Assembly (NCBI GenBank): GCA_964016885.1
Contig: OZ024745.1
Coordinates: 34,782,001 to 34,846,000, forward strand
DNA from: Eledone cirrhosa
Lineage: Eukaryota
DNA length: 64,000 bases
Direction of reading: 5' to 3'
A model generated the notes under the pieces. The model worked only from the letters and a program-made list of their open reading frames with translations, made no database searches and was not told the origin of the DNA. The position numbers were made by a program, and so were the translations under genes. Below, in pieces: positions 1,654 through 55,091 of this stretch; positions within the stretch are counted from its first letter, which is position 1, and each line of letters starts with the position of its first letter.

Positions 1654-3072
1654 GCATATAAATAATTCTGTGGTTGGTCAAATTTAAACATTTCCTCAGG
1701 AGTTTTCAGCAGCCTGAACCTCCAGCTGTAGTAACTTGTTATACTTGCCAGAATCTATTTATAACCTATATTAATGGGCTGAATGTTTAAGCTTGAGGGC
1801 CATAAAATGTATGTCCACTGCTGCACCACTGCTCAAAGCTGATTTTTATTGAGAACAAAAACTGTAATATCAAATAAGATTGAATCAATTTTGTATCCAA
1901 ATTAAATGCATGTATTATTAATGTTTTGTGACCATAATGTTCTACATGGAAGATTGACTTGCGAAAAATTGCAACCAAATCTCCCTCAAAATTATACCTT
2001 ACCATATAAAACAAGGGAGGAGACACTGGATAATATAGTGATAGATATACTATAACAGAAATAAATATGAGGGTTGAAATTCACTTCTAAATCAGCCCCA
2101 TTGTGTGGCACCTTGGACAAGTGTCATTCACAATATCTGTGTGAGAACCTTTAAGCCATTCTCTAAATTCTAACTTAATGATTATTAAATGCTTCAAAAT
2201 GATTTGAATATCATAGACAGTGTATTTCATTAGAAATTTAGTAATGAAAGGGTTAATATGTTTATTTTTCAAAACATAATATTTGAAGTACATATCCAGT
2301 TTTATTGGTAAACATTTTATGTAGTCTGACCAATGTGAAGGATGTATTTCTATTAAAAAATAAATTAGTAATAGGACAAACACAAGAGTCTTGAAGTTTC
2401 TATGTCTTTTGGCAATATTTAGAGTATACTGAGAAGAGAAGATAACAATAGAAAATGTTTAAAACAACAATGAAGCTAAGGAAAAACATTAGACTGATTA
2501 ATGGTAAGGAAGTTTCTAATATTTGTTCATGTAGGTGTGATTGATCAATTGGTTGATATGATGGTCGAAATGATGCATTTACCTAATGTACTCTAGACAT
2601 AGACTAACTATGAAAAGAAGTTTGTTATGGTTATGAGTTCAATCCTGCAGCATGGCACTTATATAACCTTGGGTTGACCAATGCCTTATGAGTTAAATTT
2701 GGTCGACAGAAACTGTAGAAACCTATCATATATCAGCATATATATGTGTGTGTGTGTGTTTGTGTGTCTGCTTGTGTGCTTGTGTGCTTGTGTTTATCTT
2801 TCAACAAAAAGTGATCAATAAAATAAGAACCTCACTTGAAAAATTAAATATTGGAATTAGTAGGAATGACCAAATCCTTTTAAGGTGGTACCCCTAGCAT
2901 AGGCTTGGTCATGTGACTTAAACTTATAAAAGAATTTTAAAAATTGATAACTCTAATAGTTTTGCCACTTCAGAGATCTGTATATAAATGTCAAGATGAT
3001 ATATATATATATATATATATTATAATGAAATGACAGGAGGCTGGATTTGTGTAAATCCTTGAAAGGTTTATT

Positions 3073-3130
3073 ATACTATGATCATTTCAATGACCGGATT
3101 CCGTATGAATCCGGTGATATCATCAGGTAT
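3073..3130 (-). ncRNA. Minimal type I hammerhead ribozyme (family A, inverted arm)
   Basis: Minus strand: atac-CTGATGA-tatcaccggattc-atacg-gaatccggtcatt-GAAA-tgatca-TA-gtat; distal stem II fully paired. Confidence 0.7.
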
Positions 3131-3223
3131 TCGAAATATAATACGTGAATGTAATAGATAAATCAGGTCCTCGATTTTCAGCCCCATGGATTTTATCTAT
3201 TACATTCATGTATTATATTTCGA

Positions 3224-3280
3224 ATACCTGATGATATCACCGGTTCATACGGAACCCGGTCATTGAAATGATCATAGTAT
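3224..3280 (+). ncRNA. Minimal type I hammerhead ribozyme (family A, forward arm)
   Basis: atac-CTGATGA-tatcaccgg...ccggtcatt-GAAA-t-GATC-a-TA-gtat: stem I atac/gtat, palindromic loop III GATC, UA cleavage site; first stem II pair is U-U. Confidence 0.7.
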
Positions 3281-3898
3281 AATAAACCTTTCAAGGATTT
3301 ACACAAATCCAGCCTCCTGTCATTTCATTATAATATTTAACTCCGTAATAGCACCACCAACTACAAAAACAAAGACGGTTGAACTGCTTTACGTTGAGTA
3401 CTCTCTATATTATTACATTACGATTGACCATACGGAATAGACCAGCTCTATACACTGGTGAACCTCAAACCTGAATATATATATATATATATATATAAAA
3501 GGTCAATCGTAAGTAACTGGGCAGCCAATGAACTTTTATTGCAAGGTTTACAGATATTAATTTAAGGTATTGATTTAGTTATATTTCTTTACCTACTTTT
3601 GTTTGATGTATTTATAATTTCGTGCTGTATGACTAGAAATTTCGTAAATATTATCATTTGGAATATAAATGTTGGACTGTCTGGTTACTTATTATTCACC
3701 ATGTACATACTGTATTTAATAAAGTAACAATGCTTTCTGCTTTTTGTGGTGTCGTATTTAAGGCAGTGATATATTGATCTAGTTGTTCATATTCTAAATG
3801 TCTTACATTAGACAGAACTGTTAAATAACATGAAGTCTTAATGATCATCTGTATTGCCATGTGTATTGATATCAATTATATTACAATAAATTGGAAGT

Positions 3899-7148: not shown

Positions 7149-7460
7149 CAATGATATTAAATAAATGGAAACTATATTTATAAAACCATATTTATTCTAT
7201 TATATATATTTCAAGGGTACCAAAACTTTGGTATGCTCTCATCAGATAAAATACAAAGTTTGTTTTATAAATATTGACATATCCAGGAAGGAGATCTTAA
7301 CAGTTCAAGTTTTTCCTGGATAGTAAAAGGAAAGAAAGAAAAGAGAAGAAAAATCAAATATTTCAAATTATTAAAGATGAATATGCAAATGAGGGTGAGG
7401 TATAGGGCTGAACAAAAACGTTATTTTTAGACGCTAGGTAGATTTAAATAATTATTAGGA
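7149..7460 (-). mobile_element. PLE-like insert in (TA)n, family C
   Basis: TA-flanked; carries a hammerhead; its 3' 50 nt (7154-7204) match the arms of the fold-back at 36619. Confidence 0.65.
7195..7251 (-). ncRNA. Minimal type I hammerhead ribozyme (family C)
   Basis: Minus strand: ttttat-CTGATGA-gagcataccaaagttttggtaccctt-GAAA-t-ATAT-a-TA-atagaa; stem I ttttat/atagaa with one G-U. Confidence 0.72.
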
Positions 7461-10298: not shown

Positions 10299-10826
<528 letters not shown>

Positions 10827-11266
10827 GTTAAAAGAATAGAGGTGTAACACACAAGTTATTATATATTGGTAAACGGAATAGAAAATGCTGACAAATTGTT
10901 CACAGTTGAAAAATGGTTTAATTAGGAATAAAAGAGTATTAGTGATTGTATGGGTTAGTATTCAGTTGTGGTTTTAAGTTTTTAAGTTTTTACCGGTTGC
11001 GCATTTCTAAATGCTTTTCAAAAATAATTTTGAGATAGAGTGTCCGTGCTGTTTGCTCTGATCTGTTTGCGAGATCAGAGCAAACAGCACGGACACTCTA
11101 TCTCAAAATTATTTTTGAAAAGCATTTAGAAAAGCGCAACCGGTAAAAACTTAAAAACTTAAAACCACAACTGAATACTAACCCATACAATCACTAATAC
11201 TCTTTTATTTCTAATTAAACCATTTTTCAACTGTGAACAATTTGTCAGCATTTTCTATTCCGTTTA

Positions 11267-11275
<9 letters not shown>
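10827..11275 (-). mobile_element. Fold-back insert in (TA)n with ~204-bp arms, no clear ribozyme core
   Basis: Arms 10861-11064 / 11072-11275 with two mismatches seen by eye, 7-nt loop gtttgcg, 34-nt tail at 10827-10860. Confidence 0.75.
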
Positions 11276-11306
<31 letters not shown>

Positions 11307-22295: not shown

Positions 22296-22388
<93 letters not shown>

Positions 22389-23269
22389 TAATGCCATTTA
22401 TAAAATCTTTTATACTTCATTTAAATTCCTTGTATATATATATATATATACAAGGAATTTAAATGAAGTATAAAAGATTTTATAAATGGCATTAATTGTA
22501 GTTACGATGATTGTGATGGTAGTATAAGGAAATAATAAAATGGTAAAATAGAAATAAAATATATAGAAAACATATGGAATACGAATTTATGTTGTAAGTA
22601 GTGTGTGAAAATATTAAGTTTTCTCCTAATACAAGGAGTTTTTCAAACGTACAAAGGTTATGATGGGCTTGTAGTGTTTAAAGGATTTAATTTTTTTGTG
22701 TATAATATATTTGTTTATTAAATACTTCTATGCATATTGGATTTCGTTCTTTTCTGTTGTGCAAATAGTGCATGGCATTTCCCCATTTGATTGCCTCCAA
22801 TATCAAAGCTGAATCATTCATAGAAAATATTCCAATAAGACAAGATATGAATTGCATGGTGATGAACACAATTAACTAGCTGAAAGTGTGTTAAGACGAT
22901 TAAGGGAAGTTGGCAGTAGAATTAATATATAACTAGGACACATTTGCATACATACATACATACATACATACATACATACATACATACATACATACATACA
23001 TACATACATACATACATACATACATGCATGCACACATACATAGATGAATATGTGTCATATATAACTATATTAATATATAATTGTGTATGTGTAAAATGAG
23101 AAAAATGCTATAAGATGCTGTCAACTTCTCTTGCAAAAATACTATCAACACAATTTGTCAATAAAAAAACTATCATTTAGGTTTAAGTCACTCAAAAAGT
23201 ATTGAAGAAAAAACAAAATTGAAATCCAGAAAATAAATATTTGAAAAGATAGATAGATATGCATGTATG

Positions 23270-23335
<66 letters not shown>

Positions 23336-23492
23336 ATGTATATAAATTTTGAGTATATGTTGGTTGTTTACCAACACCTCAGTATGCAGATTGGAGCACT
23401 CAACGAAGTACGCAGGTTGGTTTGGTTACTCCGGAGTAATGTAAAATAATTAAGTCAAATATTTAAAATTTGGCTTCGTTTATTAAACATGT

Positions 23493-23547
23493 ACTGCTAT
23501 ATATATTTCGGTGACAGCCATCATTGGCTGTGACCTCTTCAGACAGT
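23493..23547 (-). ncRNA. Minimal type I hammerhead ribozyme (family B, opposite arm)
   Basis: Minus strand: actgt-CTGAAGA-(same stem II)-GAAA-tatata-TA-gcagt; stem I closes with a U-G wobble. Confidence 0.82.
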
Positions 23548-23628
23548 CCAGGAGCTGGACATATCGGAGTATTGACGGAGTAAAACACTTCAACAACATG
23601 TGTACCTGTCTCTACCACACCAATTCAG

Positions 23629-23683
23629 ACTGCCTGAAGAGGTCACAGCCAATGATGGCTGTCACCGAAATATATATAGCAGT
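23629..23683 (+). ncRNA. Minimal type I hammerhead ribozyme (family B), cleanest copy
   Basis: actgc-CTGAAGA-ggtcacagcca-atga-tggctgtcacc-GAAA-t-ATAT-a-TA-gcagt; intact core, G-C first stem II pair, palindromic loop III. Confidence 0.88.
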
Positions 23684-23925
23684 ACATGTTTAATAAACGA
23701 AGCCAAATTTTAAATATTTGACTTAATTATTTTATATAATGTATATATATATATATATATATGTATATGAACATACATGAATGTCTATCTATCTTTTCAA
23801 ATATTTATTTTCTGGATTTCAATATGGATATATATGCATGTATATATATATATGTATATATATGTATATATATATAACCCATGCTAGCATGGAAAGTGGA
23901 CATTAAACGAGGATGATAATGATGA

Positions 23926-24055: not shown

Positions 24056-24395
24056 TTCGTTTCTGAATTTGTTTAGCAAAATTCTTTATCTGAAAACGTG
24101 TGTTGAAACCGATATTGTTATACTTTGGGAGGGTCATGTTGCCAATAAGAAACACACGCACCAGTTGCATTTCACTTCAATTTATTAAAATAAATTTATA
24201 AATTTAGGAATTTATAAATTTCCGGTTGGTTGGTTGGTTGGTTGGTTCCACAACTATCTGGTTGTGGAACCAACCAACCAACCGGAAATTTATAAATTCC
24301 TAAATTTATAAATTTATTTTAATAAATTGAAGTGAAATGCAACTGGTGCGTGTGTTTCTTATTGGCAACATGACCCACCCAAAGTATAACAATAT
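24056..24395 (-). mobile_element. Fold-back insert in (TA)n with ~140-bp arms
   Basis: Tail 24056-24111, arms 24112-24254 / 24261-24395, loop tatctg, internal (GGTT)6 versus (AACC)4; terminus resembles 15907-15931. Confidence 0.75.
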
Positions 24396-36131: not shown

Positions 36132-36618
36132 ATATATATATACATAAAAGATAATGAAATATTATGAAAAGTTTGGATAGTTGATTATTTATATGATAGA
36201 TATAGATAAGATGCAATCAGTGAGACGGAGAATAGATATGACATGGTATGTGTGCATCATACATGTATACCTAGACACACACCCACACATATATGTATGT
36301 ATGTATATACACACAGATGATATATAGGTGAAGGCATGTGGTTTAGTGGCTGGCTCATGTTATATAAGTTGAATTGTGTCCTTGAGAAATCCATTATATT
36401 CCACATTGTTACTATCTACTCAGCTGGTAAAACTGAATTTTACCTGTAACTCCAAGAGCCAACCTTGTAATGCTGTATGTCATGCTGATTCTCAGACACT
36501 AACATGTTAACATGTTAGCAGACTATTCTATTAATTGATTGCATCAACTGAAACACTTGTCATATGTCCATTATATATATGTATATAATATACTTACATA
36601 CATATATATATATATACA

Positions 36619-36810
36619 ATATTAACAAATGGAAACTATATTTATAAAACCATATTTATTTCATTATACAGTATAATGAAATAAATATGGTTTTATAAAT
36701 ATAGTTTCCATTTGTTAATATCGTATATCTACTCCAAATACTTGTCGAGTGCTTTATATCAGTTATAAAAATATTTACTTGTTGTATCCCAACTATTTAA
36801 ATAGAACTTT

Positions 36811-54885: not shown

Positions 54886-55091
54886 AGGTGGATTTCCAAT
54901 GTATATCAGGAGGTCACCACTGTTAAAAAAGCTACTCAATACGTTAGTAGAGTATAGGCATATTTATTTCATTATAGAAATTATTTCTACAGGACTAAAA
55001 CTGTTTTATTTGTAAGAAATCATTCCTAGTGATTTATTATGAATGAAACAGTTCTAGTCCTGTAGAAGTCATTTCTATAATAAAATAAATA
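54886..55091 (-). mobile_element. Decayed fold-back PLE-like insert, family D copy 2
   Basis: Tail 54886-54960, diverged arms about 54961-55022 / 55030-55091; plus strand 55021-55070 reads cattc-CTAGTGA-..gaat-GAAA-cag-ttctagtc-ctg-TA-gaag. Confidence 0.6.

Follow-up and report, generated by a model that had tools for sequence, protein, structure and literature searches.

The element at 23345–23734 is almost certainly a Hydra-clade Penelope-like element (PLE) that inserted as a short back-to-back copy within a (TA)n tract of the Eledone cirrhosa genome. The opposite-strand pair of hammerhead motifs that it carries is a published and very common by-product of the presumed route of PLE copying, not a new ribozyme device; both its layout and its hammerhead type are already known, and as a sequence feature it is ordinary. 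Its value lies in numbers: ∼8,400 matches to the core, together with young subfamilies, allow a statistical test of how PLEs make their inverted repeats and tails, the origin of which is described as unresolved in PMC8557442 and PMC11167929. We consider it probable that the overall explanation is a Hydra-clade PLE insertion in (TA)n with two joined pLTRs that arose by two-strand priming on one RNA.

The insertion and its parent element

Throughout, 'the window' is the whole 64,000-nucleotide stretch that was analysed, and 'the window copy' (copy 2) is the insertion itself. From left to right it consists of the (TA)n tract, a 15-nt repeat, a left-only segment of ∼97 nt, an inverted arm, a 79-nt right-only segment, a direct arm and the second 15-nt repeat (Table 1). 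The motif of the direct repeat is present at three places in the window, as compared with 88 TA tracts, so the repeat is probably a target-site duplication (TSD); at other copies sitting in pure TA tracts a TSD is not discernible. The window copy is asymmetric, with arm starts at −6 and −85 from CUGA, and is without the −121 site considered below. It carries no ORF, and tblastn of the window returned no match.

Table 1. Features of the window copy, its flanks and copy 1
Feature	Positions	Strand	Remarks
Flank DNA, outside the element	23218–23309	+	Unique flank; inverted duplicate at 23733–23823, 94.6% over 92 nt
Probable 15-nt TSD, left copy	23330–23344	.	End of (TA)n tract; identical to 23733–23747
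PLE tail (∼97 nt)	23345–23441	−	Follows pLTR; leads into ORF in long copies
Inverted, 5′-truncated pLTR arm (107 nt)	23442–23548	−	Starts 6 nt before CUGA; 1/107 mismatch to 23628–23734
Type I minimal hammerhead	23493–23547	−	One G-U pair in stem I; predicted cut after 23498
79-nt right-only segment	23549–23627		
Direct pLTR arm, without tail	23549–23734	+	Starts 85 nt before CUGA; finishes at fixed pLTR end
Type I minimal hammerhead	23629–23683	+	Stem III an 8-nt palindrome; cut predicted after 23678
Probable TSD, right copy	23733–23747	.	Identical to 23330–23344
Copy 1	10299–10713	−	Same layout, other subfamily; one complete hammerhead, 10349–10403 (−)

The inverted flank sequence of Table 1 is found in only these two places genome-wide. 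Insertion does not regularly invert the flank, as none of 20 other back-to-back pairs has such a duplication, and for this reason we treat it as a separate event, possibly snap-back repair at (TA)n.

A similarity search of the 3.0-Gb genome (95 matches from the 40 scored of 3,079 candidates) linked the window copy to longer loci, in which the right-hand unit is the pLTR end and the left-only segment is the tail entering the ORF; the same pLTR and tail flank the parent ORF in these longer copies. The tail segment is continuous with the RT ORF region in L033, L052, L055, L058 and others, and the direct arm is 97–99% identical to dozens of other loci; in copies that have the ORF it joins the 3′ UTR without a break. 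Motifs taken from the L058 and L052 translations and their alignment were RWK, DKT, YRDD, CxCx5C, a GIY-YIG-type core without internal CxxC, and CxxC..E..N..CxH. The longer copies thus have the ORF of an EN+ PLE, an RT with a C-terminal GIY-YIG endonuclease, linked to the repeat, although frameshifted. Also as in EN+ PLEs, pLTRs are arranged in partial tandem or inverted, with variable truncation at the 5′ side, and the tail is present at one end in 19 of 19 informative pairs, its ∼97 nt exceeding the 30–40 nt reported.

Assignment to the Hydra clade, the traits of which, including (TA)n targets and hammerheads, are defined in section 11 of PMC8557442, is indicated by the motifs (RWK, DKT, the CxCx5C linker, CxxC and CxH around E and N, and no CCHH) and by homologues of the ORF. 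It also agrees with the insertion preference for (TA)n, which flanks most ends of copies, and with the hammerhead in the pLTR. Homologues of the parent ORF numbered 1,143 at E ≤ 0.001 among 8,000 scored, mostly of ∼700 aa; one carries PF00078 and one a named RT domain. The parent ORF gave no significant Pfam match and no match in a PDB sequence search. Since the hammerhead is unlike every Hydra hammerhead in the supplement of PMC8557442, Hydra-1_oBim included, the present family is a further Hydra-clade family, absent from those listed in that paper.

Among 22 loci inspected, none has an uninterrupted RT plus EN ORF. Near-intact parent ORFs are present at L052, L055, L056, L058, L059 and L061, but their frames break between the RT and EN parts, either in or close to a run of G of variable length; the breaks may be real, or may be assembly errors that hide active copies. 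Multi-kilobase nested inverted arrangements that include halves of the ORF are seen at L047:1207–4621 and L056:2271–9358.

Origin of the paired arms

The core 19-mer has 8,386 exact matches genome-wide and its reversed control has none, while three of four hits in a type I hammerhead scan of the window belong to this family; its presence is therefore not due to chance. Within the first 100 core matches there were 20 back-to-back neighbour pairs within 3.5 kb, as compared with two same-strand and two facing pairs. Two samples were analysed. One, of 20 pairs, was taken in genome order and not chosen for tails. The other, of 45 pairs, is enriched for likeness to the window copy and is free of duplicates, single-arm loci and most multi-arm ORF loci (the L034 pair was dropped for its short overlap, and the L026 tail is only partly aligned). 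A repeat finder run on the window gave output swamped by microsatellites, and the contigs of four sequencing runs covered the repeat only, with nothing specific to the locus. Among the sequencing runs listed as carrying the sequence, none was of RNA.

The sequence-only reading had proposed that the inversion arises with each insertion, from one template, and this is supported in that breakpoints vary, arms are closer within a copy than between copies, and a private variant is present in both arms of the window copy. Junctions in the 45 pairs range from +66 to beyond −500 relative to CUGA. Divergence between arms of a copy was 186/4,353 (4.3%) as against 6.9% between copies, and was the lower of the two in 41 of 44 pairs; a separate set, the 20 pairs plus the window copy, gave 27/1,825 (1.5%) as against 3.6%. 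Some pairs in the family, in young subfamilies, have no mismatches at all.

The argument that had been drawn from the contrast between copies 1 and 2 fared less well. The differences in loop, stem II end and 8-nt block are real, but copy 1 has only one complete hammerhead, its second arm being cut inside the CUGAAGA core. Moreover, subfamily markers agree between arms (8-nt block 10/11, loop 9/14, stem II end 5/6; each p ≤ 0.00005 by permutation), so the contrast is one between two widespread subfamilies; taken alone it shows a common source subfamily rather than a single template. Stronger evidence comes from the 8-nt block of the window copy, a variant with two exact matches in the genome, both in its own arms, as compared with 398 for the usual form. 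No source copy bearing this variant was found in the assembly by exact match.

We lean modestly towards a mechanism in which the target was nicked on both strands and each strand served as primer for reverse transcription of one element RNA ('twin priming' is a term from L1). Synthesis on one target strand would begin at the tail end, ∼+205 from CUGA, and on the other at the pLTR end, ∼+101. The two cDNAs would be extended towards the 5′ end of the RNA, often to near −121, and be linked by end-joining with small losses. The −121 site is a likely transcription start, as judged from copy ends, and presumably reads as initiator-like.

Two regularities of the pairs suggest two-end priming on one RNA. 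First, in 19 of the 20 pairs one arm ends at ∼+101 and the other at ∼+205, which gives exactly one tail; the 20th, which continues into the ORF, says nothing about tails. Second, the 5′ starts of the arms are matched: they lie ≤15 nt apart in 10 of the 20, where permutation gives a mean of 4.9 (p 0.0015; the starts of three long arms were approximated), and outside the hotspot in four where 1.3 are expected (p 0.028). Of 75 arms extending at least to −112, about 37 stop between −116 and −124. BLAST ends tallied by hand at 39 junctions, a count that overstates overlap, gave 22 overlaps of 1–7 nt, five blunt joins and 12 gaps; automated calls of microhomology at junctions could not be relied on, since extension stopped at mismatches. 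The biochemistry of purified PAc (Poseidon) offers a precedent: on AT-rich DNA the enzyme cleaves both strands and extends each of them, and its reverse transcription begins at two internal sites, one at either end of the tail (PMC11167929). Within our incomplete coverage of the literature, we found no proposal that PLEs prime from two ends on one RNA.

The foremost rival, which we think unlikely although it deserves serious attention, is fold-back self-priming: a strand snaps back and copies itself, the EN resolves the resulting hairpin at two staggered sites, leaving one tail, and central deletions produce asymmetry. Spacers of ≤15 nt in 10 of 20 pairs and near-perfect palindromes fit this scheme, and the −121 hotspot lies on a short palindrome. 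DNA self-copying would duplicate a private variant, as is seen in the window copy, so that fold-back explains palindromic junctions and the shared variant as well as two-end priming does. Self-priming and EN-made tails have both been proposed (PMC3846280; PMC8557442). What weighs against it is the need for extra steps. The tail arm is longer in 17 of the 45 pairs and shorter in 27, which means that plain DNA copying of one arm from its partner does not account for either, and the loop is on the tailless arm in L104 and L115 but on the tailed arm in L100. Furthermore, the PAc ends map to sites at which reverse transcription starts, not to resolution sites (PMC11167929). Later central deletions could erase symmetry under fold-back; under either two-end priming or fold-back, the asymmetric window copy would have lost junction sequence, or its cDNAs would have stopped early.

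A quite improbable alternative is that the two arms had separate origins and that gene conversion or cruciform repair made them alike afterwards. The genome-unique variant common to both arms of the window copy is what such homogenisation predicts, and the locus does also lie within an outer palindrome. Nevertheless, private variants are confined to one arm in 136 cases and shared by both arms in seven, which makes conversion, an option named in the earlier reading, unlikely as a general cause; the window copy is young, with one single-arm private change in ∼370 nt; and conversion leaves the one-tail rule and the matched 5′ ends unexplained.

Returning to two-end priming, we propose more tentatively that the thousands of short back-to-back copies may be a record of how PLEs integrate, both target strands priming on one RNA at two fixed internal sites near its 5′ end and synthesis continuing to that end. 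If this is true, the short copies are complete copies of the mRNA 5′ end and not truncations, and the one-tail rule and matched junctions follow from one mechanism.

As a separate observation, at L017:1414–1499 and L033:6876–7001 the end of the element is present once more, inverted, just outside the flanking (TA)n, which suggests snap-back or repeat insertion at the same tract.

The hammerhead motifs

Two complete cores on opposite strands had been reported for the window copy, and the sequence confirms them. Both have the CUGANGA and GAAA core, NUH site and stems I and II of a type I hammerhead: each carries stem I (5 bp, complete), CUGAAGA, stem II, GAAA and UA, with stem II consisting of 11 pairs with one C-C mismatch and a loop of AUGA. 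No hammerhead family was among the 150 listed of 178 matches in an Rfam scan. The term 'intact' is a description of sequence, since predicted pairing of stem III in the monomer is <0.01 for the window copy, and the cut sites are predicted ones. The single mismatch between the arms changes a C-G pair of stem I to U-G, so the stem does stay paired, as had been pointed out; as a sign of selection this fails, rare changes being seen at 3/638 in the core as against 16/1,506 downstream.

In folding predictions, stems I and II form in the 55-nt monomer whereas stem III has a probability of <0.01. The minimum free energy structure of the dimer is a double hammerhead with an 8-bp palindromic stem III (−42.4 kcal/mol, against 2 × −17.6 kcal/mol). 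Added flank introduces competing hairpins that are predicted to hide the core; in 23620–23690 the CUGA is masked. For the whole element, on either strand, the predicted fold is a long hairpin of 107 bp. In tandem RNA of the parent, then, the hammerheads are predicted to cut as a double hammerhead, while read-through RNA of the window copy would form the 107-bp hairpin, destroying the ribozyme, and would not be cut. Related minimal hammerheads cleave weakly and only as dimers (PMC4209133), and the PAc hammerhead is dispensable for insertion (PMC11167929).

It is highly improbable that the opposite-strand hammerheads are a working unit resembling the viroid-like or retrozyme RNAs of which both polarities self-cleave. 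Completeness is the argument for such a unit: neither core lacks any part, nor does either 5-bp stem I, in the window copy, and the same holds for 14 of 20 pairs, which had been picked for an exact core 19-mer in both arms. Yet the motifs face away from each other, and on the predicted folds they cannot act together in one RNA, because that RNA would carry a sense and an antisense copy pairing over 107 bp. Tandem monomers are absent, both motifs are spanned in no more than 26 of the 45 pairs, with breakpoints often falling inside a motif, there is no clear excess conservation of the core, and the cut site is the arm start in only one of the 90 arms of the 45-pair set. We conclude that both hammerheads are passengers of a duplicated pLTR.

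That the element is a MITE, or a DNA transposon of the fold-back type with terminal inverted repeats, is scarcely credible, and the identical arm lengths and ends that would have refuted the earlier reading are not what is seen. The copies are short and non-coding, with inverted arms and thousands of copies, but neither uniform length nor symmetric terminal inverted repeats were found, arm lengths and junctions differing widely among copies, the ends being asymmetric through the tail and the repeat being continuous with the RT/GIY-YIG ORF, and the variable junctions and RT link refute it. A non-LTR retrozyme was rejected as well, since head-to-tail tandems are not what is seen; the locus is head-to-head, and two same-strand as against 20 back-to-back pairs were counted among 100 matches.

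Close to a TA tract, the minus strand at 7196–7250 has a further motif of type I hammerhead-like form. Its AU-palindromic stem III is the same, but its stems I and II differ; it is probably from another PLE family.

Neighbouring repeats and known systems

A second, very young back-to-back family lies in (TA)n at 10828–11276, with arms of ∼205 nt, a 7-nt spacer and a one-sided extension of ∼30 nt. Its 40 scored genomic copies are 99–100% identical, most with an inverted partner that begins near the same centre; it had no match in the type I hammerhead scan of the window, and possibly consists of short copies of another PLE. Long palindromes, 84–100% self-complementary, are present at 3014–3339, 24112–24395 (between TA tracts), 22383–22500, 36609–36731 and 54961–55091. 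The PLE family considered here seeds many long hairpins, which could feed small-RNA or editing pathways.

The closest known systems are PLEs of the Hydra clade (PMC8557442), which share with the present family RWK, DKT, CxCx5C, CxxC/CxH, the lack of CCHH, a (TA)n target and a hammerhead near the 3′ end. One of them, Penelope-13_HM, is listed with an inverted 5′-truncated copy and a hammerhead on each strand. The present family differs from these elements (Penelope-13_HM, Hydra-1_Obim) in that its stems I–III match no Hydra hammerhead listed there, its tail is ∼97 nt rather than 30–40 nt, its RT–EN linker is longer and it has thousands of short copies. The hammerheads resemble the minimal PLE motifs of PMC4209133, which are type I, with a short helix I, a long helix II and a palindromic helix III, and are dimer-dependent; Cervera and de la Pena described dual minimal hammerheads on opposite strands ∼100–700 bp apart (PMC4209133). 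In contrast to those motifs, stem III here is an 8-nt AU palindrome, stem II has 11 pairs with a mismatch, and the motif is a predicted one.

PMC3846280 and PMC8557442 already describe pLTRs in inverted orientation, tails on one side, short TSDs and junctions that are palindromic. Penelope insertions of Adineta vaga (PMC3846280), like the present family, show an inverted pLTR, a tail on one of the two and palindromic head-to-head junctions, and their short TSD (8–10 bp) compares with the probable one of the window copy; they belong to other clades, have a low copy number, and are explained there by self-priming on an antisense template. Non-LTR retrozymes (10.64898/2026.07.22.740005) likewise place a type I hammerhead in a short non-coding repeat related to the pLTR, but form head-to-tail tandems with one hammerhead per unit, whereas the window copy is head-to-head. 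PAc, a Poseidon element of Anolis (PMC11167929), shares an AT-rich target, a tail at the start of the ORF region and two fixed 3′ ends; it is of another clade, and back-to-back insertions are not modelled in that study.
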